The translations under genes were made by a program, and so were the position numbers. From a virus (Duplodnaviria > Caudoviricetes): 56,106 nucleotides of DNA. Location of the stretch: positions 1 through 56,106 of the IMG/VR virus record IMGVR_UViG_3300030106_002316. One strand, written 5' to 3'. Shown piece after piece: positions 11,403 to 56,106 of this stretch (positions are counted from its first letter, which is position 1; the number at the start of each line of letters is the position of its first letter). The notes beneath the pieces were generated by a model, which saw only the letters and a program-made list of their open reading frames with translations, was not told where the DNA came from and made no database searches.

Positions 11403-11410
11403 GTGTATTC

Positions 11411-29550: not shown

Positions 29551-29551
29551 C

Positions 29552-30184
29552 CTATTTACCCCATTCTTTCTTAAGGTAGTTTTGTATAAGGACAGACTTT
29601 ACGAATATGCTGTTGCTGTCTTTGGATAGGTGCTGGTTTACCTCATATACATTCTTTAATATGAAGGATTGTTCGTAAGAAATATTTGAAGAAAACCATC
29701 CAAGTACATTTGTTCTCAAGCCTTTTGTTACTTCTTGTACCCCGTGTGTATAAGTTATGGGGAATATGGCAGCTTCTCCCGCCTTTAATTTTCGGCCTAT
29801 GGTTCCTACTTCAGTGTTAAAATATATTTCTCCACCTTCATAATCATCGTTTAGATTGATAGAAAAGCCGTAGTCAAAGTGTACATTGTTGGACTTAGGG
29901 TAGGCTTTGAAGTTATCAACATGAAGATTATAGTAATCTCCTTTTTTATATTGGTTGTAGTAGTTAACTGAGACTCTTGTTGGGCAGTACACGCTATCTA
30001 TGTAGTGAGCATCGTATATCTTGTTAATTATTATCTTACGAATGTCTTCAGGTACGCCTAATGATTCTTTATTCTTTTTTATGCCTTCTATTGGCTGTGA
30101 TTTAGCGCCATTTTTAAATGTATCTTTTGTAATACCGTCTAAACAAGTCTTAATTTCATCGTCAGTAAGTAATTTAATAAACAT
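29552..30184 (-). CDS. PKHD-type 2OG-Fe(II) hydroxylase
   Basis: HxD (YYNLHVDN), DYEGGE, HGVQEVTKGLR; start placed at MFIKLL behind RBS AAGGGG. Confidence 0.85.
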   Translation of the reverse strand: MFIKLLTDDEIKTCLDGITKDTFKNGAKSQPIEGIKKNKESLGVPEDIRKIIINKIYDAHYIDSVYCPTRVSVNYYNQYKKGDYYNLHVDNFKAYPKSNNVHFDYGFSINLNDDYEGGEIYFNTEVGTIGRKLKAGEAAIFPITYTHGVQEVTKGLRTNVLGWFSSNISYEQSFILKNVYEVNQHLSKDSNSIFVKSVLIQNYLKKEWGK

Positions 30185-30216
30185 GTTATATCCCCTTTCA
30201 TCAGGACAATTGAACA

Positions 30217-30253
30217 AAGCAAAGAAAGGTGTGGGATTTTTGCAGAACCCCAC
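30217..30253 (-). terminator. Intrinsic terminator downstream of the capsid genes
   Basis: GTGGGGTT-loop-AATCCCAC stem followed by a U-rich tract on the minus strand. Confidence 0.65.
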
Positions 30254-42909: not shown

Positions 42910-43392
42910 CTAATTATCCATAAACTTTGCTTTACGAACACCGCCACCGTTGGCGTAGTTCTTTACTGTGCCACCAGAAGCACGTTGTATGCCTTCCTTT
43001 TTAGCCCATTCTTCATTTCTTTTTCTAACTGCTTCATCTTCTCCTTTATTCAGTGTGGAAGGAGATAGAGCTGTTTCTATGGCTGCAAGATAAGGACTAC
43101 CAAGTGCTTTAAGACCAAATTTAGCAGCAGTTTTAATTGCTTTGTTCCTTGCAAGTTTCTTTGCCATAGCCTTATCAGTTTCTTTTTCGGCTAAAGATAT
43201 GGCATGTTTCTTAGACCGTTCCATGTGCTTATCAGTTGCAGGTTTACGACCCCTTATCTTTTGACTCTTGTTAAATTCTTTAGCAGCTTTCTTACTCTCT
43301 TTGACAGCAGTTTTCTTTTTCTTTTCTAGCAGCTTATTATACTTTTTCTTTTGTCTTGCAGTTAATTCGTCATAATTTATGGTTTCAGCCAT
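42910..43392 (-). CDS. Lys-rich late protein
   Basis: Coupled to terS; ends with RASGGTV and YANGGGV. Confidence 0.7.
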   Translation of the reverse strand: MAETINYDELTARQKKKYNKLLEKKKKTAVKESKKAAKEFNKSQKIRGRKPATDKHMERSKKHAISLAEKETDKAMAKKLARNKAIKTAAKFGLKALGSPYLAAIETALSPSTLNKGEDEAVRKRNEEWAKKEGIQRASGGTVKNYANGGGVRKAKFMDN

Positions 43393-43817
43393 TATACTTG
43401 TTCCTCTTGATCTATCACTATCTCTTTCGGTTTATCCTTGGAAGGAAGCATGATGATGCCATGCATGATATTGCCTTCCACTTCGACTTGTTGCTTCTTA
43501 CCCAAACCCACTCTATCGAGTATGGTTTCTGCGGTTTTAAGTCTGTGATCCATTTGATTAAGAGGGGTTGTACCATCTGCGTCCAGACCTTCTACTATGC
43601 GACTTGCAGCTTTAACAGAGTTAGTAGCAAGCATGTTGCGTGTTCGATCTATTATCTCGTCACGTAACGAGCGCGTTAACCAACTACGAGACTGCTCTTT
43701 GTAACCAGCAGCAGCAACAGCATTCTTAACGTGACCACCATTAGCCATAAGTTCGTTAAGGAACTTCTCTTGTTTCTCTGTCAGATTCTTCTTTTCTTTT
43801 ACTTGAGGTAGGCTCAT
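43392..43817 (-). CDS. terS: Terminase small subunit
   Basis: LTEKQEKFL...GG.V..A..AAGY HTH, ILDRVGLGK, ..LP.K; upstream of terL. Confidence 0.8.
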   Translation of the reverse strand: MSLPQVKEKKNLTEKQEKFLNELMANGGHVKNAVAAAGYKEQSRSWLTRSLRDEIIDRTRNMLATNSVKAASRIVEGLDADGTTPLNQMDHRLKTAETILDRVGLGKKQQVEVEGNIMHGIIMLPSKDKPKEIVIDQEEQV

Positions 43818-44197: not shown

Positions 44198-44344
44198 TTT
44201 GTTATTTTGGGGAGATGTTTGCTACCTACGCAATCTCTAAAAATCTCGTTTAGCAGGAGATAGAAGTAATGTTCCTTATCCCAGATTTGTATGAACTTTA
44301 AGGTTTGTGTGAATATAGACTCTTTTCTACTCGTGCCACCTTCT

Positions 44345-44372
44345 ATTATACACCATATATCAATGTTGTCAA
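44345..44372 (-). promoter_or_regulatory. Sigma70-type promoter pointing into the late arm
   Basis: TTGACA-N16-TATAAT on the minus strand. Confidence 0.8.
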
Positions 44373-44411
44373 GTAAATAATGCTCTAATATGAAAAAAAA
44401 TTATTTTTTAC

Positions 44412-44439
44412 TTGACAGACTCGTAATACGGTGTATAAT
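44412..44439 (+). promoter_or_regulatory. Sigma70-type promoter pointing into non-coding DNA
   Basis: TTGACA-N16-TATAAT with an upstream A/T tract. Confidence 0.8.
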
Positions 44440-44474
44440 AGTGTATAACACTGCCGAGGGGTGCAATAGCAATA

Positions 44475-44492
44475 CTATATAGTACTATATAG
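44475..44492. repeat. Perfect 18-bp palindrome CTATATAGTACTATATAG
   Basis: Direct reading. Confidence 0.9.
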
Positions 44493-44903
44493 AACTGTGC
44501 TGCACTGTGATGAACTACGAGTCCACTCGCACCAAAAGGTTAACAAGACCAGAATAGCTTCAAAAAAATAAAATTAATAGGGGCCGTGAGTATACTATTA
44601 CGGGGGGGCGTAGTGGCCCATGCGCGGGTGTTCCTATTTTGTCCCGCACGAAACATCGCCGATCATTTAGCAATATTGATTATATAAGGAAAACCGCCAA
44701 AGCACTATTTATCCTTATTTTCTGCATTATTTCTTCACGTACACATACATGTGAGTAATCTTGAACTGACATTTTGTATTTATAGTTTTAAAAGTAGTGT
44801 ATAGGGGGCAGGGTGGCGCACATTTCAAACCCTACGCAATAACCCTACTATCCAGACATTACAAAGCTTTAAAGAGTTATGCGAGTTATTACAGCCTACA
44901 CAT

Positions 44904-44939
44904 AAAAAGAACCCTAGCATTCTATAAAGAACACTAGGG
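44904..44939 (-). terminator. Intrinsic terminator ending the minus-strand early cluster
   Basis: CCCUAGUGUUCU-UUAU-AGAAUGCUAGGG 12-bp stem followed by UUCUUUUU. Confidence 0.8.
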
Positions 44940-44964
44940 CCAAGTTAACAGGGAGGAATATACC

Positions 44965-45345
44965 TTATCTTATATATTCTATAAACGCTATCAGGAAGAC
45001 TACAACGCCGAACATGACCGCACCGCCAATTGTTATGCGGTCAAGTAGCTGGATTGCGTGGTCATAACGGTTGTTAAGCAAAGCAATGTCTCGCTGTCTT
45101 GTCATATCTATTGTTTTATTGATCTGCTTTAACTCTGGATCAATCCATTCTGCATTGTAAGCTTTAATAGCCTTATCAACATCCGCCTTATTCATTGTTG
45201 AGAGTGCCAAGCGGTTCATTTCATCCTTAACATCTGCACATTCAGCCAAAACGAACTCACTTGTTAAAACGGGAGATTTAGACGTACCAAGGTTTTCTAA
45301 TGCTTCCCGCATTAACTTGGTTGGATCAGTTACTTGTGTTTTCAT
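44965..45345 (-). CDS. Hypothetical protein with C-terminal TM helix
   Basis: RBS AAGGAG; ITIGGAVMFGVVVFLIAFI. Confidence 0.75.
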   Translation of the reverse strand: MKTQVTDPTKLMREALENLGTSKSPVLTSEFVLAECADVKDEMNRLALSTMNKADVDKAIKAYNAEWIDPELKQINKTIDMTRQRDIALLNNRYDHAIQLLDRITIGGAVMFGVVVFLIAFIEYIR

Positions 45346-45360
45346 CTATTCGCTCCTTCA

Positions 45361-45591
45361 TTAATAGTTAGTAAAACCGATGTGAACATCCTTAGAGAGA
45401 TCAACAGTTGATCCCTTGTAGACTGCGTTTTCGAATGTATCACGGTTAAAGTTTGGATTGTCTCGACCAAACAAGCATATGAAGTCATATATTAAAGGAT
45501 CAATACGGACTTTCGTTTCATCGTCCTTCACATAGTCATTAAGAAGTTTCGCAATGTCGATATAATGCCGTTTTTGATATTTACTAGCCAT
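45361..45591 (-). CDS. Small phage hypothetical protein
   Basis: HY..IA.LL...F..DNPNF....F..A pattern. Confidence 0.75.
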   Translation of the reverse strand: MASKYQKRHYIDIAKLLNDYVKDDETKVRIDPLIYDFICLFGRDNPNFNRDTFENAVYKGSTVDLSKDVHIGFTNY

Positions 45592-45901
45592 TGTGCTTAA
45601 TCTCCCATTCTAAAGGCTTATTTGTGCTGTTCTTTACATCCTCGCGCCTTCTCTGAATAACGCCTTTCGCTAGGCTATCAATTGTGACCCGTGTATCCCA
45701 ACGACTAATCACATCCAATTCATCGCGCATATTCATTTGTTTTAATCGCAAAGCAAGCACGTAACTGTTGCATTCATCACAGCATCGCCCGTCAATTATA
45801 GGCTGTGCATTATGTCCATCGCTCCAAATAACCTTGCCGTTCTTTTCATCACGAACGGGCTGGATATCACCTTTGCAAATATCGCATGTTTTCTTTTTCA
45901 T
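45584..45901 (-). CDS. Zinc-finger-like hypothetical protein
   Basis: CDIC...GHNAQP..DGRCCDECN. Confidence 0.75.
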   Translation of the reverse strand: MKKKTCDICKGDIQPVRDEKNGKVIWSDGHNAQPIIDGRCCDECNSYVLALRLKQMNMRDELDVISRWDTRVTIDSLAKGVIQRRREDVKNSTNKPLEWEIKHNG

Positions 45902-46042
45902 AATCTATAATCCTTCTCTGTTAAAGTTAGGGCGGAAACATCTCTGCAACCGCCCGTAAGTTTTAACCGAATACTAAAGATAATGCAACAATTATTGCTA
46001 TTATCACACCTATTTTATATAGGCCAATAATTGCTTCATACA

Positions 46043-47158
46043 TTACGCAACAAGCAATTCTTTTGCTTTGTTAAATGCTTTGGTTTTAATGTCAGTAGCA
46101 CCAGCACCATAGAAAGCTTTATCCAATCGATTATCCTGACCGTGATCTCTGACAGGCTTATGGTCTGACATATAAGTGACAGTATTAAACGCACCCCAGA
46201 GAGTACCTTGAGCGCTTGGCTTATCCCATCCCATATTGATAGCTGACGATTGCTTACTAACAATTTCACTTTCCTCTTGGATCTCATCGTGAGATTTACC
46301 AGACAACAAGCCGTCAATAATCTCCTGCTGCCTTCTGATCTGAGCATCCTTTGTTTCTTTTGATGAACTATTCGGAGCAAACTCTTGTCCTCTGAAATAT
46401 GCCATTGCTTTCCTGACACCTTCAGAGTGTATAAGCTTGCCTGATTTGTCCTCGCGTTCTTTACCGCCAAACACTGAACGGAAATACTCAATCTCCTCCT
46501 CACCTTGAAGAACACGTTGCGCCATCTGTTTGGCAAGTCCTTCCAACTTTCCAAAGTTCTTAGAACTGACACCAAGAGCAACTTTCAATGCGTCTGCATC
46601 GAACACGGCGCGGTGGTTATGAGTAACAATATCTTCCGCCCCGCCCATTGCTAAACGCATCGTATTAGCACACACGACACGAACTGGTGTATTCAAAGCA
46701 CTGTTTGCGTGTTTACCAGTATGTGAAATAGTGAATAACAAATTGTTGTGAACCCAGTCATCATCCCCGAGATCAAACCCCTCATTCGTGGTAGCCATAC
46801 ACCAAACTTTCTGACCACCAAACAACGAGCCAGCGGTGTGCAGATACATTGAACCATTGTTAACAAACTCAGAGAAGAACTCGAACAACTCTTTGTTCTG
46901 AACTGGCTTGTAGTCTCCTGCAACATAATGTCCTAATATCTGACCATCGCTGATACGTTCAATAAAGTTAGAGTTTTCAATTGGCTCTGATGGATAATAC
47001 TCGTGGTTTGCTGGATAACAGTTATTGTTTAACTTCACTTCCCAATCGCAACCTGCTTCCACCATCATTTGCTCTGGTGTCAGATCATTGCTAATTGGAT
47101 TACCTAACCCATGCCAAGGTGTTTCTCCTGCGAAGGCCATTGTTTCTACTTCATGCAT
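46043..47158 (-). CDS. DUF932 / TIGR03299 phage-plasmid family protein
   Basis: MHEVETMAF.GE.PWHGLG, Y.PVQN, TAGSL.GG.KVW, TPVRVVCANT, GTLWGAFN.VT. Confidence 0.9.
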   Translation of the reverse strand: MHEVETMAFAGETPWHGLGNPISNDLTPEQMMVEAGCDWEVKLNNNCYPANHEYYPSEPIENSNFIERISDGQILGHYVAGDYKPVQNKELFEFFSEFVNNGSMYLHTAGSLFGGQKVWCMATTNEGFDLGDDDWVHNNLLFTISHTGKHANSALNTPVRVVCANTMRLAMGGAEDIVTHNHRAVFDADALKVALGVSSKNFGKLEGLAKQMAQRVLQGEEEIEYFRSVFGGKEREDKSGKLIHSEGVRKAMAYFRGQEFAPNSSSKETKDAQIRRQQEIIDGLLSGKSHDEIQEESEIVSKQSSAINMGWDKPSAQGTLWGAFNTVTYMSDHKPVRDHGQDNRLDKAFYGAGATDIKTKAFNKAKELLVA

Positions 47159-47288
47159 AATCTTTCCTTTCTATGCTGTTAACTGCTCTGCGATATTGCG
47201 GAGCATACCCTACTTATAAATACTTGGCTGTTAATTGCAAGAACTTTTATTGCAACATAAGCTTGTAATAATCTTGGAACATAACGTG

Positions 47289-47372
47289 CTAATAAGACTG
47301 CAACACAAGACTCCAGTACAAGCAACAGACCGATCCCACCAAGAGTGAAACCATCACAATACCTTCGGTCAC
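47289..47372 (-). CDS. Possible 27-aa membrane peptide
   Basis: GTG start overlapping the upstream stop, RBS AGGAG; (M)TEGIVMVSLLVGSVCCLYWSLVLQSY. Confidence 0.4.
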   Translation of the reverse strand: MTEGIVMVSLLVGSVCCLYWSLVLQSY

Positions 47373-47752
47373 GATTTTGCTCCTTCCTCAATAAAAAAAA
47401 CCTTATCGACCATATCTTGTGCTGTCTCCTCGTTAGGGGCCGACAATTTTGTCTCGTCATCACTTTCAGGTCTGACAAGTTTATAGCTGACAATTTTATG
47501 GCTGACATTTAATTGGTTGACAAATTCCATGTTGGCTATCTGTATTGCATCCTTATAATCTTCCGCACAATCCCAAATACAAGAATAGTTTGTTACAATT
47601 TCCTCCGTCACTCCTGTCATCTCACAGTCCACGCAGTCACGTTCTGTGATATGCGCCCACTGTCCACTATCATCAACGCCATGCTCAGTAACCTCTTGCA
47701 TTCCAGTACCATTACATTCAGTGCAAGCCCACGTTACTTGAAAATCAGGCAT
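47369..47752 (-). CDS. Hypothetical protein with DnaJ-like zinc finger
   Basis: CTECNGTG and CVDCEMTG; RBS AGGAGG. Confidence 0.7.
   Translation of the reverse strand: MPDFQVTWACTECNGTGMQEVTEHGVDDSGQWAHITERDCVDCEMTGVTEEIVTNYSCIWDCAEDYKDAIQIANMEFVNQLNVSHKIVSYKLVRPESDDETKLSAPNEETAQDMVDKVFFIEEGAKS
47471..47527 (+). repeat. Degenerate 15-bp-period array of TGACA
   Basis: TGACA starts at 47473, 47488, 47503, 47518. Confidence 0.8.
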
Positions 47753-48050
47753 TACCTCCTCCAATCCAAGCTCCTAAGTCTAGGCCAACAAAGAATCCTC
47801 TGTCTTCCGCCTGTTCCTCGCTTAATACATCGGCATCAATAGCTAAGTCGCCTGTTTGACGTAAAGCGTCTGACATAAATGTTAGTGCCTTATCAATTGA
47901 AGCAAAGAGCATCACTTCTCCCGCATCATCCAAGAGATATTCCTTACCATTCAACGAGATACCTTCTGGATGCATATAAATATGGTACAGTGCATCTGGT
48001 GCATTCTCGTGTTGGTTCTCGCGTAACTCGTCATTAGCTTGGTGGCTCAT
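47745..48050 (-). CDS. Hypothetical protein
   Basis: EGISLNG.EYLLD..G.V..F motif; RBS AGGAG. Confidence 0.7.
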   Translation of the reverse strand: MSHQANDELRENQHENAPDALYHIYMHPEGISLNGKEYLLDDAGEVMLFASIDKALTFMSDALRQTGDLAIDADVLSEEQAEDRGFFVGLDLGAWIGGGNA

Positions 48051-48219
48051 TATTCAATCTCCTTACTTTTAGTGCTAAGTCTATGATCTCTTGGGCTGTC
48101 ATAATAAATGCCCAATCTTCTCCAATAGCATCATCAGCTATCTCTGTAGCTACTTGATAATCACCACAATTACCAAGAGGTAAACATTGTCCTAAATAAT
48201 CAAAAGCATACCAATTCAT
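48034..48219 (-). CDS. Hypothetical protein
   Basis: RBS GGAGG; operon packing. Confidence 0.7.
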   Translation of the reverse strand: MNWYAFDYLGQCLPLGNCGDYQVATEIADDAIGEDWAFIMTAQEIIDLALKVRRLNNEPPS

Positions 48220-48231
48220 TATTCAACCTCC

Positions 48232-48489
48232 TTATGTCTTCATACTGAATGGGTTATTGCTCCATAACGTACCAGCCTTAACACGCACCATTGCATGCTT
48301 CTTAGTATCTTTGCCAGTATTGTTTGGAACTGTAAGTACAACGTTGCGTCCTTCGCTGAAAGCACGTTGCTGGTCAAGTAGTCGTTGCATACTAGAACGT
48401 TGTCTTCTAACAGCCTTAGTAGTCTCTTTTGCAACACTACGTCTTTCACCTTTAGAGGTGTACTGAGGTCTGGATTTCTTTCTACCCAT
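48232..48489 (-). CDS. Basic hypothetical protein
   Basis: MGRKKSR..YTSKGERRSVA...AF..GRNVVLTVPN. Confidence 0.7.
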   Translation of the reverse strand: MGRKKSRPQYTSKGERRSVAKETTKAVRRQRSSMQRLLDQQRAFSEGRNVVLTVPNNTGKDTKKHAMVRVKAGTLWSNNPFSMKT

Positions 48490-48490
48490 G

Positions 48491-48724
48491 TTATATCCTA
48501 ACAAACTTAGGATTATTAACACGTTGGCTTGTAGGAGATAGATTCTTACAAGCTTTCAATGATCTCCAATAAGTTTCAGTGTCGGGACAATACCACAACC
48601 AACTCTTGCCGTTACGAACTTTATGCAACGGCGTTCTAACAAGCCTATGTTTATTAATATTGTCTGAACTGGCTAGTAAGTCATTGAAAAAGTCATTCAT
48701 AAATGCAATACTATTTTTTGACAT
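48491..48724 (-). CDS. Hypothetical protein
   Basis: RBS AAGGA; operon packing. Confidence 0.6.
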   Translation of the reverse strand: MSKNSIAFMNDFFNDLLASSDNINKHRLVRTPLHKVRNGKSWLWYCPDTETYWRSLKACKNLSPTSQRVNNPKFVRI

Positions 48725-48784
48725 ATTCTTTCCTTTTCAAAAATGTTGAAGATAGGGACAGAGTACACCACCTAAAAATCAGTG

Positions 48785-49018
48785 TCAAACTTTATTATTG
48801 CAGTCTTGTGTTCCATGCTCCTGCAACAGAAGATTGATTTCTTCCTCCGAAGCAACTCCAATGTAATATCTCAAGCGATCTTCAAATGCAAAGTTCATCA
48901 GGGTTTGAAGATCCCAACTGTCCACTAAGTTATCAACAGCATTTTCAATGCTGACAATTTTATTCGCTGACAATTTATTCGCTGACATTTTCATCGCTGA
49001 CATTTTCATCGCTGACAT
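48785..49018 (-). CDS. Hypothetical protein; start at one of the ATGs inside the tandem repeat
   Basis: VDNLVDSWDL..L..FA pattern; exact start ambiguous. Confidence 0.55.
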   Translation of the reverse strand: MSAMKMSAMKMSANKLSANKIVSIENAVDNLVDSWDLQTLMNFAFEDRLRYYIGVASEEEINLLLQEHGTQDCNNKV

Positions 49019-49022
49019 TTTC
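48950..49022 (+). repeat. Five-unit 15/16-bp tandem repeat (GCTGACA followed by an A/T-rich tail ending TTC or ATC)
   Basis: Units start at 48950, 48966, 48981, 48996, 49011. Confidence 0.92.
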
Positions 49023-49271
49023 TTTTCGTAAAGTAAATGGATCATCGTAACGAACTTCTGACATCGGGTACACCATCTCCACATAAATGTCTCTGTAGAC
49101 ATCGCCTGTCCAATCATCAAGAGCGTACACATCCTTATCCTCATAAGGGTTGACATTTTTAAGCATCTCTTGACCTTGCTGTTTTGCGTGAGCAATGTCA
49201 TTCGCTTTCACAATACATTCATACCATTGGGTACTAGCACGTTGTATTCTAATACAATATTCGTCAGCCAT
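48975..49271 (-). CDS. Hypothetical protein ending in repeat-encoded ENVSD x3
   Basis: Start MADEY behind RBS AGGAG. Confidence 0.65.
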   Translation of the reverse strand: MADEYCIRIQRASTQWYECIVKANDIAHAKQQGQEMLKNVNPYEDKDVYALDDWTGDVYRDIYVEMVYPMSEVRYDDPFTLRKENVSDENVSDENVSE

Positions 49272-49461
49272 TCTTCTCTCCTTTTTTCTCCTGTTCCCAA
49301 GCCTCATTGACATCTTTTGTTGCAGGATTATCTGCTTTGTACCTACCGCCTTTTGTTCTAGCACGTTTACGCTTACGTTTAGGTTTGTCTTCTGGTTCAA
49401 ACTCTAACACGAATATGCTGGAACACAAGTCTCTAAATGTTTTAACGTCACTCAGTTTCAT
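49264..49461 (-). CDS. Small phage protein with RAR..G.Y.ADNP.T.D.NEAW motif
   Basis: Motif and RBS. Confidence 0.7.
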   Translation of the reverse strand: MKLSDVKTFRDLCSSIFVLEFEPEDKPKRKRKRARTKGGRYKADNPATKDVNEAWEQEKKGEKNG

Positions 49462-49636
49462 CTTCTTTCTCCTCTTTCCAAGCCCATAGTCTCATACTGA
49501 AACCATTTTCTTCGGTTGACCACTTAAACTCCCAAGAACCACCAAAATGTCTTACAAGAATCTGTTGCAAGTCATTTCTAAATTCTTTGGGACACGGTGT
49601 TTCTTCTTCTTCTTCAATGCATTGTTTCATCATCAT
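49448..49636 (-). CDS. Hypothetical protein
   Basis: Operon packing, RBS AGGAG. Confidence 0.6.
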   Translation of the reverse strand: MMMKQCIEEEEETPCPKEFRNDLQQILVRHFGGSWEFKWSTEENGFSMRLWAWKEEKEDETE

Positions 49637-49895
49637 CTCCTATAACATCAACAACCCATTTGTCTGAATTATCAGTGTCCATAGAATCAGCAAAACGTGT
49701 TAATTCTTCTAATAGAAAAGCTACTGCAAGGATAGGTGAAGGTGCTTTCATCATAACACTGGTGTAGAGAGCGTGTATTGCTCCTGTAAGCATCGCTCTG
49801 GGATCGTTTGGATACCTGTTCTCCAAATCTCTCATTACTTCTGTGAGATTCTTAAAACTCTCTATCATTATGTCAGTATCTAATTTATCTGTCAT
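49614..49895 (-). CDS. Hypothetical protein
   Basis: ATGA coupling at MTDKLD. Confidence 0.6.
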   Translation of the reverse strand: MTDKLDTDIMIESFKNLTEVMRDLENRYPNDPRAMLTGAIHALYTSVMMKAPSPILAVAFLLEELTRFADSMDTDNSDKWVVDVIGDDDETMH

Positions 49896-50119
49896 ATTAC
49901 ACTCTTCTGTTTTAAGTCTTTCATAGCGTGGTATAAATGCCACTTTGCATCTGTAAGTTTTCTATAATCAGACATGTACATATCCCCATCCATCTCTGCA
50001 ATATTATCAAGAGGTTGGCTAATAAGATCATTAATTCTTACAAGAAACTCTGCTGGAGTAAGATACTCATTACCGTTCCAGTGTATAGGCGAAGTCTTAG
50101 TTTGTTTTGTTGTACTCAT
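49892..50119 (-). CDS. Hypothetical protein
   Basis: ATGA coupling at MSTTKQ. Confidence 0.6.
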   Translation of the reverse strand: MSTTKQTKTSPIHWNGNEYLTPAEFLVRINDLISQPLDNIAEMDGDMYMSDYRKLTDAKWHLYHAMKDLKQKSVI

Positions 50120-50424
50120 ATCGCTACATCCATTCTTACACCACGACACTTTATCCACTGCATTGTATCAAGATTAACATTGCGATACCCTCTTGTTGCA
50201 GGTTCCCACACAGTAATATATTCTGGTGCAGTAAAAGAGTTACCACCCTTGAAATGTTTTGTTACACCAAGCCGACAAGTCATTACTCTCTCGACACCAT
50301 TTAGTTTAATGAACTTAACAGTGAAGAAACGAGAACCCACCATTTCAGATATTTTTCTTTTGAAGTCCATGTGGTCTACTTGCTTTGTATAACGATTGTT
50401 AAAGTAGTATGGCCGATTTCGCAT
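50116..50424 (-). CDS. WYL-like/SH3-fold phage protein (DUF2693-like), first gene of the early cluster
   Basis: FFTVKF.K.NG.ER.M.CRLGV...ITVWE....GYR.VNL. Confidence 0.7.
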   Translation of the reverse strand: MRNRPYYFNNRYTKQVDHMDFKRKISEMVGSRFFTVKFIKLNGVERVMTCRLGVTKHFKGGNSFTAPEYITVWEPATRGYRNVNLDTMQWIKCRGVRMDVAI

Positions 50425-50452
50425 TAGATTTCCTTTCCTTTAAAAAAAATGC

Positions 50453-50482
50453 TTGACAAGTGAAATTTGGTCGGAGTATACA
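50453..50482 (+). promoter_or_regulatory. Possible promoter for the replication arm, overlapping the opposite promoter
   Basis: TTGACA-N18-TATACA with an upstream A tract; imperfect -10. Confidence 0.5.
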
Positions 50483-50503
50483 TAGTAACAATTTGCATGT
50501 CAA
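50475..50503 (-). promoter_or_regulatory. Sigma70-type promoter for the early cluster
   Basis: TTGACA-N17-TATACT on the minus strand. Confidence 0.8.
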
Positions 50504-50538
50504 CAGCTAATTTAGTTACTGACAAAAAGGGAAAGAAA

Positions 50539-51069
50539 ATGACAGAATTTAGCCAAACATTTGCAATGCCAAACAAGGATACACTGAGTATTAAACCCAT
50601 TAGAGAGTTTGCAGAAAAATGGGTAAACAAGTCACTTACACTTAACAAGCTTAAAGTTGTAATTGATCCATTTGCTAAAGATTGTGAATTGGGAACAATA
50701 ACAAATGACCTTAATCCTGACACAAAAGCACATTATAATATGAGGGCGGAGGTATTTTTAGATATGCTGTTAGATGATGGTGTGAGAGCAGACGTTGTTA
50801 TCTACGATCCACCTTACAGTGTTAGACAAATAAGCGAGTGTTATAGTGCAGTAGGAATTAAAACAACACAACAAGATACGCAGTCTAGTTTTTATACTAA
50901 GATTAAAGACAGAATAAGACCGCTGTTGAAACCCGATGGCATTGTGTTATCATTTGGTTGGAATAGTATGGGCGTGGGTAAGAAGGGTTTTGAGTACGAA
51001 GAGATCATGTTAGTGACACATGGTGGTGTACACAATGACACTATATGTGTAGCACAAAGGAAGGTATGA
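50539..51069 (+). CDS. Amino (N6-adenine/N4-cytosine) DNA methyltransferase
   Basis: Motif I IDPFA, catalytic DPPY, LKPDG.V.SFGWNS.G.GK. Confidence 0.8.
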   Translation: MTEFSQTFAMPNKDTLSIKPIREFAEKWVNKSLTLNKLKVVIDPFAKDCELGTITNDLNPDTKAHYNMRAEVFLDMLLDDGVRADVVIYDPPYSVRQISECYSAVGIKTTQQDTQSSFYTKIKDRIRPLLKPDGIVLSFGWNSMGVGKKGFEYEEIMLVTHGGVHNDTICVAQRKV

Positions 51070-52796
51070 TGACAACATATACACTAGATATAGAAACAGA
51101 CAGCCTTGAAGCACAAAGGATATGGTGTGTCTGTGTAAAAGCGTTGTATTCTGATGACTACATTGTTGCAACGAAAGCTGAAGATCTATCTTTTATAACA
51201 CAAGACGACACATTGATAACTCATAATGGTGTACAGTTTGACATTCCTATTCTTAATAGGTTATGGAATACTGGCATTAAACTGAATCAAGTTAGAGACA
51301 CTCTTATAATGTCGCGTTTGTTTAATCATAGTCGAGAAGGCGGTCACTCGTTAGGTCAATGGGGTAAGCGTCTTGCGTTTAAGAAGATGGATTTTGACAA
51401 TTTTAAAAGCTACTCTGACAAAATGGTTGAGTATTGCAAGCGTGATGTCGCCCTAACAGAAAAGATATATTTTTATTTGAAGCGTGAAGGTGAGAATTTT
51501 TCTGACAAATCTATTCAACTAGAGCATGAGATCGCTCATATTATAAGCTTACAAAGTAACAACGGTTTTTATTTGAATAGAAAAAAAGCTAATGATTTAT
51601 TTGAAGAAACGTTTACTAAGGCCAATCTCATAAAAGAGCAACTACAGAAGGAGTTTAAGCCGAAGCCCAAGCTTCTTAAAGAGGTGACACCAAAGATAAA
51701 GAAAGACGGAACACTATCTCCTGTAGGTTTAAATAAGATTAAAAATTGTCTTAAGACAGTAGGCGGTAAGTTCTCTTTAATTGAGTTCGTAGACTTCAAC
51801 TTAGGAAGCCCGAAGCAGATTATTGAAAGATTAGATTCTTGCGGATGGAAGCCCGTAGAGTTCACACCGAAAGGCTCCGCTAAGATATGTGAGAGGAATC
51901 TTGAAACTATCTCTGACACTGCACCACAGTCTGCTAAGAAGCTGGCAGAGTGGAAGATGCTGGAATCACGGTGGAAGACTGTAGAGAGTTGGCTGAAGTT
52001 TTGTGGCACTGACAATCGTATTCACGGTAAAGTGATGACGATGGGTGCTGTGACAGGACGTATGACACACTCGGACCCTAACATGGCGAATGTAGTGTCC
52101 TCTGAGAAGCCCTACGGACGCGAATGCCGTGAGTGTTTTACTGTTGAGGATGCTGACAATTACAGTATGGTGGGGATGGATGCTAAAGGGCTAGAACTAC
52201 GAATGTTAGCACATTACATGAATGACAAAGAGTATACTGACATTGTGTTGCATGGTGATCCTCACACTGCCAATCAAGAAGCGACAGGTTTGAGGACAAG
52301 ATCTCAAGCCAAGACTTTTATCTACGCATTTCTTTATGGTGCAGGAGCAGAAAGACTAGGTTCTGTGGTTAACGGCACAGCTAGGGATGGTGCGATGCTG
52401 AAGAAGAAATTTTTATATAACATGCCCTCTTTACAAAAGCTTTTGGATAAGGTACAAAGATTATCTAGCAATGGAAGTATTAAGGGTTTAGATGGACGAA
52501 GACTTATAATACGACATCAACATGCATCCTTGAACACACTATTACAAGGAGCAGGGGCAATAACCTGTAAGCAATGGAGTATTTGTATGCACCGTTACAT
52601 TAAAGACAACAAGCTTAATGCTAAGCTAGTGAACACTATACACGATGAGTTACAGTACGAAGTACATAACGATGATGTAGAGCAGATGATTATAGGTGCT
52701 GACAAAATGATGCAAGAGGCTGGAAAACTTCTTGGTGTAAGATTACAACTTAACGCAGACGCAAAGGTAGGTACGACATGGGCAGACACTCATTAG
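51066..52796 (+). CDS. Family A DNA polymerase with 3'-5' exonuclease (T7 gp5-like)
   Basis: Exo DIET, HNG..FD, YC.RDV; motif A DAKGLELR, motif B KTFIYAFLYG (Tyr at the Pol I 762-equivalent position), motif C IHDE. Confidence 0.96.
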   Translation: MMTTYTLDIETDSLEAQRIWCVCVKALYSDDYIVATKAEDLSFITQDDTLITHNGVQFDIPILNRLWNTGIKLNQVRDTLIMSRLFNHSREGGHSLGQWGKRLAFKKMDFDNFKSYSDKMVEYCKRDVALTEKIYFYLKREGENFSDKSIQLEHEIAHIISLQSNNGFYLNRKKANDLFEETFTKANLIKEQLQKEFKPKPKLLKEVTPKIKKDGTLSPVGLNKIKNCLKTVGGKFSLIEFVDFNLGSPKQIIERLDSCGWKPVEFTPKGSAKICERNLETISDTAPQSAKKLAEWKMLESRWKTVESWLKFCGTDNRIHGKVMTMGAVTGRMTHSDPNMANVVSSEKPYGRECRECFTVEDADNYSMVGMDAKGLELRMLAHYMNDKEYTDIVLHGDPHTANQEATGLRTRSQAKTFIYAFLYGAGAERLGSVVNGTARDGAMLKKKFLYNMPSLQKLLDKVQRLSSNGSIKGLDGRRLIIRHQHASLNTLLQGAGAITCKQWSICMHRYIKDNKLNAKLVNTIHDELQYEVHNDDVEQMIIGADKMMQEAGKLLGVRLQLNADAKVGTTWADTH

Positions 52797-53281
52797 AAAC
52801 AGAACACGGTGAAAAAGCAGAAAAGCTTTTTAGAGACATAGCGATACAAGAAGGATATTCTGTTAAGAAATCAACACGTTACAGTAACATAGCAGAACAC
52901 ATAGATTTTCATTTAACATCAAAAAGAGGGTTTGACAATTTTTCTGTTGATGTAAAAGCAAGGAAGAAACCATCAAGAGATGCAACGTGGTACGAAGATC
53001 AAGAAGTGTGGGTAGAGTTTCATAATGTTGCTGGCAAGAAAGGCTGGTTATATGGAGAAGCTGACAAAATAGTTTTTGAAAGAGAAGGAGATTTTGTCAT
53101 AGTCCCTAGAGCCGAATTGACAAAATTTTGTGAAAAATCTGTTTCACCTTGTTTTGTTAAAAGCGCAAATGAAGCTTTGTATAAAAGTTACAGACGCAAA
53201 AACCGAAAAGACGTTATTAGTAAAGTTTTAATGGCTGACATTGTTGAGAATGTAGAGAATATTATTTATTGGAAAAAATAA
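52778..53281 (+). CDS. PD-(D/E)XK-family nuclease-like protein
   Basis: G..AE..F, HIDF, VDVK, WVEF.NV.G..GWL.G.AD. Confidence 0.7.
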   Translation: MGRHSLETEHGEKAEKLFRDIAIQEGYSVKKSTRYSNIAEHIDFHLTSKRGFDNFSVDVKARKKPSRDATWYEDQEVWVEFHNVAGKKGWLYGEADKIVFEREGDFVIVPRAELTKFCEKSVSPCFVKSANEALYKSYRRKNRKDVISKVLMADIVENVENIIYWKK

Positions 53282-53590
53282 ATGAAGAAGTACAATCCAC
53301 TGCCAAAAATACTAACAATAAAACAAAGTAACATACACGGTTTAGGGTTGTTTGCTATTGTCAATATACCTAAAGGAACAGAACTTGGCATGTGCCATCT
53401 TAACATTAACAGTGTGCTAATAAGAACACCGTTAGGAGGTTTTTACAATCACAGCGACAATCCAAACTGTGTAAAATATGAGAAGCATAATAAAAAAGGT
53501 TACGCCAATACTTACTATTATTTAAAAACAATAAAAAATATTATGAAAGACGAAGAATTAACAGTTAAATATACTTTATATAAAATGTGA
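53282..53590 (+). CDS. Minimal SET-domain protein (putative protein lysine methyltransferase)
   Basis: S.IHGLGLFA...IPKG, F.NHS..PN, I...EELT..Y. Confidence 0.85.
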   Translation: MKKYNPLPKILTIKQSNIHGLGLFAIVNIPKGTELGMCHLNINSVLIRTPLGGFYNHSDNPNCVKYEKHNKKGYANTYYYLKTIKNIMKDEELTVKYTLYKM

Positions 53591-53599
53591 TTTTATCTG

Positions 53600-53628
53600 T
53601 TGACACGAATAAATAAATAATGTAAATT
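53600..53628 (+). promoter_or_regulatory. Sigma70-type promoter upstream of SSB
   Basis: TTGACA-N17-TAAATT. Confidence 0.7.
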
Positions 53629-53667
53629 AACAGACTTAGAAACCATAGATCGAAAAGGAGAATATCT

Positions 53668-54108
53668 ATGATAGTTAGAGGAACAGCTAAATGGGCTTCA
53701 GTTTTTGAACCAAATGTTATGTCTGGTAAGTATCAGGTTGACATTTGCAACTTAGACGACAAGACCATTAAAGAGCTAAAGAAGCATGGCCTTGATGTTA
53801 AGAAAGGCACTGACAAGAAAGAAGACCAAGGACACTACATAACGGCGAAAGCCAGCAAGTACGCTCCTAGAGTCTTAAATAATAAACGAGAAGTTATGGA
53901 CGGTTCCGATCTTATCGGTAACGGTTCTACTATTAAAGTATCTATCACACCGTTCAAATGGAATTTCCAAGGTAAGTCTGGTGTGAGTGCTGCTTTAAAT
54001 TCCCTTATGGTAGTCAAGCTTGAAGAATATGGTGGCGGTGATTATCTTGAAGCTGAACCAGACGATGACTTTTCGTTTGATTCGGATGGGGAGGGCGAAG
54101 AGCTTTAA
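53668..54108 (+). CDS. Single-stranded DNA-binding protein (T7 gp2.5-like)
   Basis: G.AKWA.V.EPN..SGKY.VD, IGNGS..KV, L....V..L.EY, acidic tail; RBS AAGGAG. Confidence 0.85.
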   Translation: MIVRGTAKWASVFEPNVMSGKYQVDICNLDDKTIKELKKHGLDVKKGTDKKEDQGHYITAKASKYAPRVLNNKREVMDGSDLIGNGSTIKVSITPFKWNFQGKSGVSAALNSLMVVKLEEYGGGDYLEAEPDDDFSFDSDGEGEEL

Positions 54109-54224
54109 TACGGGTTTATAAAGCTTACGCTCCAAGAGTAGGTAGGGATGACCAGTAGGAGTCATCGGTATTAGAGCGAGGGATCGGGGCTGCTAGTACA
54201 AAGTTCTTTCTGTTGTTGAAGTGA

Positions 54225-54280
54225 GAAATCCCGTACACCAAAGTTATGCTCCTTACTGAAGTGTGCGGGTTTTCTTTTTT
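54225..54280 (+). terminator. Intrinsic terminator-like hairpin after SSB
   Basis: GAAA-CCCGTACAC / GTGTGCGGG-TTTC stem with a large loop, followed by a T6 tract. Confidence 0.65.
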
Positions 54281-54294
54281 GCAAGGAATTTAAA

Positions 54295-55134
54295 TTGCCT
54301 AAAATTATTACGTTAATAGACGACATACACAAGCTTCTTGAAGATGGTAAAGAAGGCGTTAATGAGAAACACTTACAAGAATTTTTTAAGTTTTTACGTG
54401 AGGATATAAATGTATTTTTGTCAGGAGAAAAGAGAGGAAAACCTAGTTTACGAATGTCCTCAATTGGTAAAAAGGATCGTAAACTTTGGTATGAATTTAA
54501 TAGTAAGAAACCGCCAGAGGAGATAGACGGTAAGCTTAAACTTAGATTCTTCTTTGGGAATCTTGTTGAATCTTTTCTGTTATTGCTTGCACAAGAAGCA
54601 GGTCACAAAGTAACAGACAGACAAAAGGAAGTTATAGTGGAAGGTGTTAAAGGACACATAGACTGCAAAATAGATGGTGTGTTAGTAGATGTTAAGTCTG
54701 CTTCTGACTTTGGTTATAGAAAGTTTAAAGATAATAGCATATACCACGAAGATCCTTTTGGATACATTGCTCAGTTAAGTGGTTACGTTCAAGCGGAGGA
54801 AGGAGATGTTGGATACTTCTGGGCTTACAACAAAAATAACTCTGAGATGACACTTACAGAGCTAGACGAACTAACGATGATTGATACATCACAACGAGTT
54901 AAGCATCTCAAGAAGATGGTCAAAAATGGTAACATGCCAGAAAGATGCTACTCTGACATTCCACACGGTAAAATGGGTAACAGAGTTATTGACAAGAATT
55001 GTAATTATTGCGAGTATAAGATAGATTGTTGGAAAGACACAAACGATGGCGATGGGCTAAGAGTCTTTCAATACTCTTACGGTAAAGAATACTTTACTCA
55101 TGTTGAGAGGACACCAAAAGTTTTAGAATTGTAG
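54295..55134 (+). CDS. Cas4-like PD-(D/E)XK exonuclease
   Basis: LRMS.IG, GHID..IDG.LVDVKSAS, YIAQL..Y, CNYCEYK..CW; TTG start. Confidence 0.8.
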   Translation: MPKIITLIDDIHKLLEDGKEGVNEKHLQEFFKFLREDINVFLSGEKRGKPSLRMSSIGKKDRKLWYEFNSKKPPEEIDGKLKLRFFFGNLVESFLLLLAQEAGHKVTDRQKEVIVEGVKGHIDCKIDGVLVDVKSASDFGYRKFKDNSIYHEDPFGYIAQLSGYVQAEEGDVGYFWAYNKNNSEMTLTELDELTMIDTSQRVKHLKKMVKNGNMPERCYSDIPHGKMGNRVIDKNCNYCEYKIDCWKDTNDGDGLRVFQYSYGKEYFTHVERTPKVLEL

Positions 55135-55144
55135 ACGTACTGTA

Positions 55145-55396
55145 ATGAAAAGGAAAGGAAAAGGTACATGGCATATAAAGTGGTTTTCAACAATTTTGTT
55201 GATGCTTGGTATGACTTTGACAAGTCAAAATATTTTCCCATACAATTTATACCTTCACTTAGTAGGAACGTTAGGTTGGACATACGTTTCTATTGTGTGG
55301 AATGATAGAGCTTTGATTATTTTGAATAGCGTAGCTTTATCTATATTTATAAACGGAATAATAGCAGAAATGGTGAAAACAAATGGGATACCTTAA
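55145..55396 (+). CDS. Small membrane protein (DUF6552-like)
   Basis: KW.ST..L..GM.LTS.NI.PYNL......GW..V...W.DRAL..LN. Confidence 0.75.
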   Translation: MKRKGKGTWHIKWFSTILLMLGMTLTSQNIFPYNLYLHLVGTLGWTYVSIVWNDRALIILNSVALSIFINGIIAEMVKTNGIP

Positions 55397-56106
55397 AACA
55401 CATCAACCTTGTGATGACTGCGGGAGCAGTGATGCACTTGCAGTGAACGATGATGGAAGCTCGTTTTGCTTCTCTTGTGAAAGACATCGTAAATCTACGG
55501 ATGAACTCTTATTAGATGACGAAGAAGATGAAGAAGAAACAATGAAGCATAATCCCCGACACGCTTCTCATCTTAATGAAGGCGAGTTTATGGATTTGCC
55601 TGAACGTGGTATAACGAAAGAAACTTGTGAGGCTTACAATGTAACTATTGCGCCTAATGGTTATAAGCATTACTACCCTTATTATAATGAAGATAATGAG
55701 TTAATAGCGCAGAAACATAGGATATACACAAGCGACAATCAGAAAACATTTCAAACGATGGGAGATTGGGATCAAACTACGTTGTTTGGACAATCCATAT
55801 GCAGGAAAGGCGGTAAATACATTACATTATGCGAAGGCGAACTTGACGCTCTCGCTGCATATCAAATGCAAGGCTCCAAGTGGCCTGTTGTTTCTATAAA
55901 GAATGGTGCTGGAAATGCTGTTAAAGATGTACAAAGAGCTTTCGAGTTTCTCACTTCATATGATAACATTGTTGTATGTTTTGACAATGATAAGGCTGGT
56001 AAAAAAGCTGCTAAGAAAGTTGCTGAATTATTATCACCTAAAGCCAAGGTGATGCACCTTAACTTGAAAGATGCTAACGAGTATCTTATACAAGATAAGA
56101 TTGAGA
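55383..56106 (+). CDS. Primase-helicase N-terminal part (zinc finger plus TOPRIM), continues at position 1
   Basis: Manual translation MGYLKTHQPCDDCGSSDA...CFSC; EGELDALA; CFDND.AG; open to the window end. Confidence 0.92.
   Translation, partial: MGYLKTHQPCDDCGSSDALAVNDDGSSFCFSCERHRKSTDELLLDDEEDEEETMKHNPRHASHLNEGEFMDLPERGITKETCEAYNVTIAPNGYKHYYPYYNEDNELIAQKHRIYTSDNQKTFQTMGDWDQTTLFGQSICRKGGKYITLCEGELDALAAYQMQGSKWPVVSIKNGAGNAVKDVQRAFEFLTSYDNIVVCFDNDKAGKKAAKKVAELLSPKAKVMHLNLKDANEYLIQDKIE
56008..56105 (+). repeat. Terminal overlap, copy 2
   Basis: Identical to 1-98. Confidence 0.95.

Follow-up and report, generated by a model that had tools for sequence, protein, structure and literature searches.

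A one-stranded field of YTGACA sites beside a conserved non-coding element in a T7-supergroup phage: candidate oriented binding sites for a DNA-binding protein

The stretch of DNA analysed here, called the window throughout, is the complete IMG/VR record IMGVR_UViG_3300030106_002316, a single contig of 56,106 bases from an uncultured marine phage of the Caudoviricetes, and our subject is the pentamer TGACA, which is strongly over-represented on the plus strand of the window between 46.0 and 55.3 kb. The core of the motif is YTGACA (Y, C or T) and its copies take three forms: a single site in a non-coding control element (44.2-45.0 kb), a pair of tandem iteron-like arrays within the early operon, and ~35 scattered weaker copies in coding sequence. 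We tentatively interpret this field as a set of oriented binding sites for a sequence-specific DNA-binding protein that would control or accommodate a rightward process, the binder probably being phage-encoded and most likely an early protein. We report the sites, their length, arrays, polarity, conservation, turnover and boundaries as observations, and from these sequence features we infer protein binding, the candidate binder and a process that would read the orientation. All of the material consists of assembled contigs (24 runs, all as contigs).

The window as a whole holds 72 TGACA and 84 TGTCA on its plus strand. Between 44767 and 55982 there are 52 plus-strand copies of TGACA, 20 of them up to 49308 and 32 from 50454 onward, with 7 copies in 1-5.26 kb and 12 reverse-orientation copies in 46-56 kb; a preliminary description of this DNA had given approximate counts of 50, 20, 30, 7 and 10 for the same quantities, and the recount agrees with them. 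Among the 20 copies up to 49308, the one at 44767 lies in the non-coding element, 16 lie in called minus-strand genes and 2 in the remainder of the second array. Within 46000-55300 the 50 copies of TGACA compare with 15.8±3.9 expected and the 27 copies of CTGACA with 3.3±1.8, and neither count was equalled in any of 500 dinucleotide-preserving shuffles, while in the same shuffles the reverse words stay near expectation (TGTCA 12 vs 13.8, TGTCAG 4 vs 2.7). The excess is local: it sets in to the right of the non-coding element, with one site only in the first 1.5 kb, and fades by about 55 kb, the controls remaining flat. Density is thus not uniform around the genome, and the ~11 kb field beside a genome end of the preliminary description gives way to a shorter, non-uniform one whose left boundary is the element.

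The orientation of the motif is identical in the minus-strand genes at 46043-50424 and in the plus-strand genes at 50467-55396. To the dinucleotide shuffles we added a codon test of 1000 synonymous-codon shuffles, in which every protein and the per-gene codon usage were retained. The minus-strand genes contain 17 copies vs 5.8±1.9 in the shuffles and the plus-strand genes 29 vs 14.2±2.8, with 0/1000 shuffles as high in either block, whereas control blocks showed no excess (genes 55383-5263, 8 vs 8.9; late genes, 12 vs 17.5). With both arrays masked, the minus-strand genes still hold 10 copies vs 4.4±1.7, again 0/1000. In line with the preliminary description, codon usage does not explain the field, since the excess survives both synonymous and dinucleotide shuffles (0/1000 and 0/500). 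A scan of all 4-, 5- and 6-mers placed TGTCA/TGTCAG at the top of the coding strand of the minus block and TGACA/CTGACA at the top of the plus block; the leading words of the two opposed blocks are one and the same plus-strand word, which is not so in two control blocks, and this upholds the earlier claim of a strand polarity independent of gene direction. When the hexamers of the two gene blocks were split, CTGACA was enriched (12 vs 2.7 and 13 vs 3.3) and TTGACA mildly so, while ATGACA, GTGACA, GACA without a preceding T and CTGAC without the final A showed no enrichment. Most field sites, 46/50, lie within called genes; the others are 48952 and 48968, which fall in the overlapping open reading frame (ORF) 48785-49201, and 50454 and 53601, the sole intergenic or promoter sites. 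The ORF and gene sets are our own selection, with ambiguity where ORFs overlap, in 47.2-47.8, 48.8-49.4 and 49.9-50.4 kb. On the plus strand of 46000-50430, GACT is absent (0 vs 9.8 expected in synonymous shuffles, z -4.0) and GACG is low (2 vs 7.7), and nearly all GAC trinucleotides on the plus strand of the early genes seem to be steered to GACA.

The best copies read GGCTGACAATTTT or YTGACAAAATAGTT, and the strongest sites exceed five bases (GGCTGACAATTTT; TGACAAAATAGTT); the four extended examples quoted in the preliminary description, at 52154, 52700, 53062 and 53236, are all GCTGACA(A/T). The scattered sites, by comparison, carry little information beyond the hexamer, with C at -1 in 19/41, a weakly A/T-rich flank and no preference for G at -2. 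A weight matrix built from the arrays of related phages alone finds 17 plus-strand matches of at least 12 bits in the window, all in 46-54 kb, and 2 such matches on the minus strand genome-wide. The two arrays and the other groups of sites are listed in Table 1. Array 1 falls within ORF 47369-47764 (-) and stands upstream of a DUF932 gene, about 283-315 bp from its start; array 2 has the consensus (T)CGCTGACA(A/T)TTT and is scored by Tandem Repeats Finder (TRF) at period 15, 5.5 copies and score 108. Contigs from three other studies span both arrays, and no array indel occurs among the indel-table rows and pieces listed. Arrays that lie in ORFs encode (I/N/L)-V-(S/R) repeats, but the repeat is a DNA-level feature, because some arrays of relatives are non-coding, with spacings that are not multiples of three (for example L017 1027-1070; L numbers denote related loci, described below). 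One unit of array 2 is 16 bp long among 15-bp units and so shifts the reading frame within the array: ENVSD repeats close ORF 48975-49400, and ORF 48785-49201 carries on in a different frame. Two genes may overlap here, one gene may be frameshifted, or slippage may be programmed. A second repeat family, which differs by lineage, lies between array 1 and DUF932, with 24-nt repeats at 47250-47309 of the window and GC-rich decamer repeats (AGCGAGGCGG) at L017 900-960.

Table 1. Coordinates in the window of the motif field, its groups of sites and the surrounding features
Feature	Position	Strand	Description
Motif field	46000..55300	+	50 TGACA, of which 27 CTGACA, 13 TTGACA; minus-strand early genes and methyltransferase-to-DUF6552 genes
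Element site	44767..44771	+	Single conserved TGACA in non-coding element, 156 nt right of conserved box
Three-TGACA cluster	46150, 46166, 46177 (46150..46181)	+	3' part of DUF932 gene
Array 1	47436..47530	+	TGACA units 47473, 47488, 47503, 47518 (15-bp spacing) and CGACA variant 47441
Array 2	48940..49025	+	Units 48952, 48968, 48983, 48998, 49013; spacing 16, 15, 15, 15
Sites within PolA	51395, 51416, 51503 (51395..51507)	+	11.5-14.9 bits
Four high-scoring sites	52700, 52933, 53062, 53236 (52700..53240)	+	14.4-16.7 bits; PolA 3' end and next gene
Conserved non-coding element	44198..44964	.	Left boundary of field
DUF932 gene	46043..47158	-	phrog_1221; PF06067 E 1.4e-36; conserved neighbour of array 1
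Opposed overlapping promoters at gene-direction flip	50453..50503	.	Leftward TTGACA-17-TATACT (50503-50475)
Plus-strand genes	50467 across junction to 5263	+	Methyltransferase, family-A DNA polymerase (PolA), 167-residue protein, SET-domain protein, Enc34-type single-stranded DNA-binding protein (SSB)
Plus-strand genes, continued	to 5263	+	PD-(D/E)XK-like protein, DUF6552, primase-helicase, endonucleases, ribonucleotide reductase
Minus-strand genes	50424 down to 5405	-	Small early genes including DUF932, then 767-bp non-coding stretch 44198-44964
Minus-strand genes past non-coding stretch		-	Small genes (one weakly small-terminase-like), large terminase, portal, major head protein, tail, lysis

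Conservation was followed in 80 IMG/VR loci (L001-L080) that encode a relative of the polymerase and that are not independent samples. The extended words are conserved and polar at lengths of 10-13 nt and recur exactly across lineages and places: in these loci plus the window, some of the loci being near-duplicates, the counts on the two strands are 48:0 for TGACAATTTT, 67:1 for GCTGACAATTT and 17:0 for TGACAAAATWGTT. Arrays in the relatives have 3-7 copies at spacings of 12, 15, 19-25 or 21 bp, in ORFs and in non-coding DNA; their consensus is GGCTGACAATTTT among members of the close clade and GTTGACAAAATAGTT for the L031 lineage, and the flank variants, which include AATTTT and AAATAGTT, depend on lineage. 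Among 14 loci of at least 9 kb with a polymerase at least 68% identical, (G)CTGACA(A) is the top over-represented 6-mer, and polar, in most; a GCTGAC/CTGACA/TGACAA word tops 11/14 of them, other words coming first or close in L005, in the second row of L010 and in L014. The more distant L031 (polymerase 61% identical) uses TTGACA instead, and loci at or below 47% polymerase identity show nothing comparable. CTGACAA is restricted to 7-8 kb of one strand in four near-complete genomes, and has no such concentration in G004, the genome of the TTGACA user L031. A polar motif next to the termini of relatives was a check named in the preliminary description: polarity was found, in CTGACA for the close clade and in TTGACA for L031, and what the motif adjoins is the non-coding element, not the presumed end. 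Clusters of at least three reverse-strand sites number 0 in the six related loci with a DUF932 gene in view, and the window has one, at 35.2 kb in the late genes.

The scattered copies change position among relatives while their density is maintained. Sites in PolA fall in 47 distinct alignment columns, being both retained and replaced, and the polymerase-block sites of the window are kept at aligned positions in 81/208 comparisons (39%) vs a median of 22% for 156 frequent 5-mers. After array masking, L031 (22 vs 9.6, 0/1000) and L014 (7 vs 3.2, 16/1000) still exceed synonymous shuffles on the strand antisense to the early genes. We suggest that the scattered sites are under selection because this masked excess is found in three lineages, the window included, and because aligned retention is above the 5-mer median. 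The reach of the field differs by lineage: in L031 it is confined to the minus-strand early genes, and its extension into the polymerase genes occurs only in the clade of the window, the polymerase gene holding 8-15 sites in the close clade, 4-5 in L014, L017 and L018 and 0-3 in distant relatives. Site 53062 is TGACAAAATAGTT, and its counterpart TGACAAAATWGTT directly downstream of PolA is retained in L013, L014, L015, L018 and L021. The trait that stays constant across lineages is a motif on the strand antisense to the early genes, which is the sense strand of a conserved rightward promoter in the element.

That element is the conserved feature at the left edge of the field. It contains back-to-back sigma-70 promoters, each matching the consensus at 12/12 positions (44372- and 44412+), inside a 39-nt inverted repeat, and the pair is also present in L014, L015 and L031. 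On the 3' side of the rightward promoter follow a conserved A-rich block and then, at 44611, the invariant box TAGTGGCCC-N3-CGCG; a TGACA site stands about 146-156 nt beyond the box, often as the full TGACAAAATAGTT, and is kept in 8 related loci. The terminator hairpin of the early operon, at 44910-44941, is within the element too. Counterparts were located at L014 3320-4020, L015 1360-2060 and L031 1-700, and in L084, L088, L091, L105, L092, L097 and L102. We take the conservation to be at the DNA level because the box core shows no RNA covariation (3 invariant pairs). Plus-strand TGACA is absent to the left of the element and present to its right in the window, L014 and L031. Between the rightward promoter and the early genes, the window has no ORF of at least 60 aa, and L031 has a short insert there. 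A weak small-terminase match lies at 43392-43817, 0.6 kb from the element (Pfam E 0.0017; PHROG 2.6e-5), and the element is a candidate packaging or replication control site. We also considered the box as a cohesive end; it is internal in most contigs, and contig ends lend that idea no support. The box occurs in GC-richer phage contigs as well. The 39-nt promoter piece at 44401-44439 has a metagenome contig depth several-fold above its surroundings and loose ends into unrelated sequence on both sides, so that further genomes of the samples seem to carry the promoter cassette too.

Where gene direction flips there is a second pair of promoters. Its likely rightward member, by eye TTGACA(50453)-18-TATACA, uses a TTGACAA site as its -35 hexamer, and an A-tract plus TTGACA is conserved at the flip in relatives. 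The face-to-face promoters at 50453-50503 have their -10 region in common, an overlap that resembles a switch allowing expression of either the early or the replication genes, but not both.

The DUF932 gene is the other anchor of the arrays. An array lies 245-315 bp upstream of its start in 7/7 genomes in which that gene is in view, and the ~250 bp between array 1 and DUF932 cannot be aligned across lineages although the array stays in place. The AlphaFold model of the protein is confident, with a predicted local distance difference test (pLDDT) score of 86.1 and a predicted template modelling (pTM) score of 0.84, and has a beta-rich N-terminal part and a helical C-terminal part; Foldseek returned 0 matches to it at E ≤ 0.001 in the PDB, and the sequence search gave no match of solved structure. 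The family is large, with 8392 cluster representatives at E ≤ 0.001. Arrays as a general feature of DUF932 genes were considered and rejected, the genes of three distant phages (Melnitz-3, DSL-LC04 and phiM7) having no arrays ahead of them. By eye, promoter-like TTGAC-N17-TATAxT pairs precede the Melnitz-3 and phiM7 genes, and Streptomyces phages and mycobacteriophages have DUF932 homologues within 1-4 kb of a genome end. None of the literature excerpts mentioning DUF932 appeared to address its function.

The genomic setting of the field differs from that first proposed. Positions 1-98 and 56009-56106 repeat each other over ~97 nt, the final base being different, and a T7 gp4-like primase-helicase gene crosses the junction (55383 to 1043), its two end pieces having the peptide AKKVAELLSPKAK... 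in common and both aligning to one 532-residue protein of L014. This makes the record a circular assembly, about 56.0 kb long and opened at an arbitrary point, and because its ends overlap and one gene spans the junction, 56.1 kb is no physical end; the genome end placed there beforehand is an assembly overlap inside the primase-helicase gene. Family scans of window ORFs (50 PHROG and 30 Pfam queries, partly of the same ORFs and covering part of them; all statements below on family matches refer to these) identify a T7-type replisome with PolA, the gp4-like primase-helicase, SSB and nucleases, the 167-residue protein of the replication module being nuclease-like by eye. The scans matched no RNA polymerase, integrase, recombinase or repressor family. 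The phage looks lytic because neither repressor nor integrase was matched, and the link drawn previously between the field and a late recombinase-like protein is not borne out by the scans. Its nearest cultured phages by polymerase are the pelagiphages HTVC103P, HTVC104P and HTVC115P, at 40-42% identity; HTVC103P, the closest of them, has no such field and differs in gene layout, the GenBank phage collection contained no near-identical DNA, and Rfam and tRNA scans gave no matches.

Oriented protein-binding sites had been suggested in the preliminary description, and the long consensus and the tandem arrays fit them. We favour this reading because of the conserved 10-13 nt words, the arrays that hold their position, the lineage-specific flanks and the copy in the control element; the flanks, differing by lineage around a common core, would point to a phage rather than a host protein as the binder. 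A rightward process is suggested because the strong copies are all co-directional with the rightward consensus promoter of the element, unchanged across the gene flip, and the promoter at 44412 is the only conserved rightward feature at the left edge of the field. Such a process would start at the element, cross the early genes and, in this clade, enter the polymerase genes, and the bound factor would either act on it or have to stay permissive to it. For its nature we would first propose rightward transcription under polar control, which would read the early genes in antisense and the replication genes in sense, with the sites working in the manner of the repressor-bound stoperators of mycobacteriophage L5; our second choice would be a replication fork that leaves an origin in the element and moves rightward. 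Several points weigh against the proposed binding sites. No helix-turn-helix (HTH), ribbon-helix-helix (RHH) or repressor family was matched in the family scans, in which many small early ORFs matched no family at all, and the DUF932 model, having no solved fold neighbour, adds nothing for or against DNA binding. The scattered sites are short for a specific binder of double-stranded DNA, with little information outside the hexamer; unlike stoperators the sites are mostly inside genes and, in the early block, opposed to gene direction; and a plain binding-site model does not by itself need strict polarity over 9 kb. The spread into the polymerase gene, finally, is lineage-specific, and scattered and arrayed copies may differ in function.

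The closest known parallels appear to be mycobacteriophage stoperators and iterons. The L5 consensus contains a -35-like word (TGTCAAG/CTTGACA). According to excerpts of a published account, the L5 repressor (gp71) binds more than 20 asymmetric 13-mers whose orientation correlates with transcription, and reversing a stoperator site abolishes repression (PMC9283540). The field resembles the stoperators of this cluster A phage, as those excerpts describe them, in an asymmetric site of ~13 bp with non-random orientation and many copies, more than 20 in L5 (PMC9283540) and here 17 sites of at least 12 bits on one strand with exact 10-13-mers. It differs in that its orientation ignores the direction of the genes that carry the sites and is co-directional only with the rightward promoter at 44412, in that 46/50 sites are inside called genes whereas stoperators occupy short intergenic gaps and promoters, in its tandem arrays and in its limitation to about 9 of 56 kb. 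Systems of the L5 type combine a cognate monomeric HTH repressor with a temperate life style; no HTH, repressor or integrase family was found here in the family scans. Iterons are tandem direct repeats to which an initiator encoded close by binds, and origins that have them include the lambda origin in gene O, P4 ori/crr and P1 incC/incA. The arrays are like these in their 3-7 tandem direct repeats of 12-24 bp, which can sit in coding sequence, and in forming two separate, equally oriented clusters close to other repeats and to A-rich DNA, and unlike them in the ~35 extra single copies across neighbouring genes and in the absence of any initiator family among the matches. Dunn and Studier are said to have described, in 1983, the SRL/SRR short-repeat arrays beside the terminal repeats of T7; ours are likewise short direct-repeat arrays in the non-late part of a T7-supergroup podovirus genome, but SRL/SRR are non-coding and at the physical ends, whereas here the candidate end element is 2.9 and 4.4 kb away from the arrays, and a scattered field accompanies them. 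Excerpts of the literature on TGACAA with phage repeats and origins held nothing relevant.

A T7-supergroup phage without a matched RNA polymerase must time its genes and start its replication using host enzymes, and how phages of this group that lack their own RNA polymerase time genes and replication is, to our knowledge, largely unknown. One-way sites in essential genes, under selection and anchored to a control element and to DUF932, offer a concrete handle on that regulation. Identifying the binder would reveal what at least one widespread 'unknown' early protein does, and whether oriented stoperator-like control exists beyond temperate actinobacteriophages; if the reader of the sites turned out to be a translocase or nuclease, they would represent a new kind of polar genome signal in a virus.

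The strict polarity, the one-stranded enrichment and a reverse word that is not avoided would also suit a Chi-like or guide signal, by which a nuclease or translocase of the RecBCD/AddAB type enters near the element, moves rightward and is switched off or steered by the oriented sites, which would protect the first-entering or last-packaged ~10 kb. Chi sequences are 5-8 nt long and, in the chromosome of the host, over-represented with a strand skew; Chi words, like the FtsK-orienting polar sequences (KOPS) and the SpoIIIE recognition sequences (SRS), are read by a directional machine. The field shares with the signals of RecBCD/AddAB and of FtsK/SpoIIIE a short word over-represented on one strand, and the scattered sites, at 6 nt, have typical Chi length. 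It starts beside a DNA-level element whose conserved box lacks RNA covariation and which, 0.6 kb from the small-terminase match, could be a packaging site and hence a physical end, and the preferred hexamer varies by lineage (CTGACA or TTGACA), as different hosts might cause. Chi recognition, on the other hand, is of short words, whereas here words of 10-13 nt are conserved and polar, and the best copies, conserved over at least 13 nt and recurring exactly in different lineages and places, stand in tandem arrays. A Chi-like signal gives no reason for an array held 245-315 bp upstream of one gene, the first 1.5 kb to the right of the element holds a single site, the assembly is circular and the conserved box is internal in most contigs. 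On balance we regard such a signal as unlikely. KOPS-like translocation, another option of the preliminary description, is contradicted by an orientation that never flips, either in the window or in four whole-genome relatives; KOPS/SRS flip at the origin or dif and so point to the terminus. The field is also local, whereas Chi and KOPS/SRS words are genome-wide. We would give a similarly small chance to a broader possibility, a one-way sequence-guided system on the first ~10 kb beside the packaging or control element in which a translocase, nuclease or replisome that enters there reads YTGACA on one strand. If true, incoming DNA would be protected and pulled inward, or forks forced one way, and the system would be a phage counterpart of Chi or KOPS with the tandem arrays as loading or switch points; we know of no such system described for podoviruses. 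A nucleoprotein coat of an ejected protein, another of the earlier options, may also be considered.

The arrays could alternatively be origin iterons or priming zones, with the scattered copies serving as start sites of the gp4-like primase on the lagging-strand template. A T7-type replisome is present, and no RNA polymerase family was matched among the scanned ORFs, therefore the phage would need another replication start. The T7 primary origin is a promoter followed by an A-rich block, which the strong promoter and conserved A-rich block of the element resemble, and further repeat families lie between array 1 and DUF932. T7 primase recognises the core GTC within the class 5'-KKGTC-3' and does not read bases 3' of the cryptic C, and the complementary TTGTCA does contain this GTC. 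GACA without a preceding T is nevertheless not enriched (11 vs 8.9 and 24 vs 21.5), nor is there an excess of GACCA, GACCC or CTGAC with a base other than A; enrichment is limited to the TGTCAR subset, so that the bases 3' of the cryptic C would need to be read. KKGTC already occurs ~3 times per kb per strand (179 and 153 in the genome), which leaves no shortage to correct. The hexamer split and these counts argue against primase sites of the T7 type, and with no mirror-image enrichment to the left of the element, as a bidirectional origin would predict, and no initiator family among the PHROG and Pfam matches, we consider the origin or priming explanation quite improbable as a whole. A role in RNA is more doubtful again: the rightward transcript from 44412 and the replication mRNAs would carry CUGACA, the leftward early mRNAs would carry UGUCAG arrays, and these RNAs would base-pair with each other, or share an RNA-binding protein, to give an early-to-middle switch. 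Complementarity between opposite-strand transcripts would automatically fix the motif on one DNA strand whatever the gene direction, the arrays lie within the early operon, and the perfect rightward promoter, conserved in the window, L014, L015 and L031, precedes no ORF of at least 60 aa before the early genes in the window; but pairing outside the arrays would be only 6-7 nt, G at -2 is not preferred in the scattered sites, the element core has no conserved RNA structure or covariation and the Rfam scan found no match. We see little prospect that the sites are sigma-70 -35 elements, whether decoys, as had been suggested, or activator-served middle promoters. TTGACA does make up 13/50 field sites and is used throughout the L031 lineage, and the genuine promoters at 44412 and 50453 include the word. 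A sigma-70 -35 element has its -10 hexamer 16-18 nt further downstream; across 11 genomes, TAnnnT at a 17-nt spacer follows 3% of 291 plus-strand YTGACA sites vs 17% of 89 reverse-strand control sites, which include real early promoters; promoter-like sites in 44-56 kb number 41 vs 34.9±6.5 in shuffles, no excess; the form enriched here is CTGACA, not TTGACA; and five sites 15 bp apart cannot each be a promoter. Without a -10 partner or an excess of promoter-like sites, the -35 reading is largely refuted. We attach almost no credence to the view that the field has no function in DNA and arose from repeated peptides (xVS), local codon context or shared ancestry. The spacings of ORF-borne arrays are multiples of three (12, 15 and 21) and read as (I/N/L)-V-(S/R) in one frame, and the sharing of sites among relatives is partly simple homology; against this stand non-coding arrays with 19- and 24-bp spacing, an excess that outlasts synonymous shuffles with arrays masked in three lineages, one plus-strand word at the top of both opposed blocks, site turnover with density maintained and the 48:0, 67:1 and 17:0 ratios of the extended words. 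A peptide or codon artefact is contradicted by the masked shuffles, the k-mer scan and the non-coding arrays. The remaining weight, beyond the proposed binding sites and these alternatives, we leave to something that we have not thought of.

Two further candidates were examined and set aside. Distant relatives have scattered words of their own (ACGAGG, GCAGGT, CACTGG and CTATTG) without arrays, and no analogous field was seen in them; the array in L040 is a TEEA coding repeat. The methyltransferase encoded at 50467-51069 (+) might have had the motif as its target, but the field is retained without a methyltransferase match in L001, which has 13 sites in the polymerase gene and 4.9 kb of sequence upstream, and in L002, with 12 such sites and 3.2 kb. 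This enzyme, a small DPPY methyltransferase, is present in L003, L007, L008, L010-L012 and L033; L001 lacks it despite a polymerase 98% identical, which points to a recent gain or loss of the gene by mosaicism.

Other genes of the window deserve mention. The virion module at 6324-14746 (-) encodes two huge proteins of 1692 and 1111 residues without a PHROG match at E ≤ 0.001. Two neighbouring genes resembling 2-oxoglutarate (2OG)-Fe(II) oxygenases lie amid the structural module at 28915-30253 (-), and a SET-domain protein (PF00856, E 4.3e-10) is encoded at 53282-53590 (+), within the replication module.

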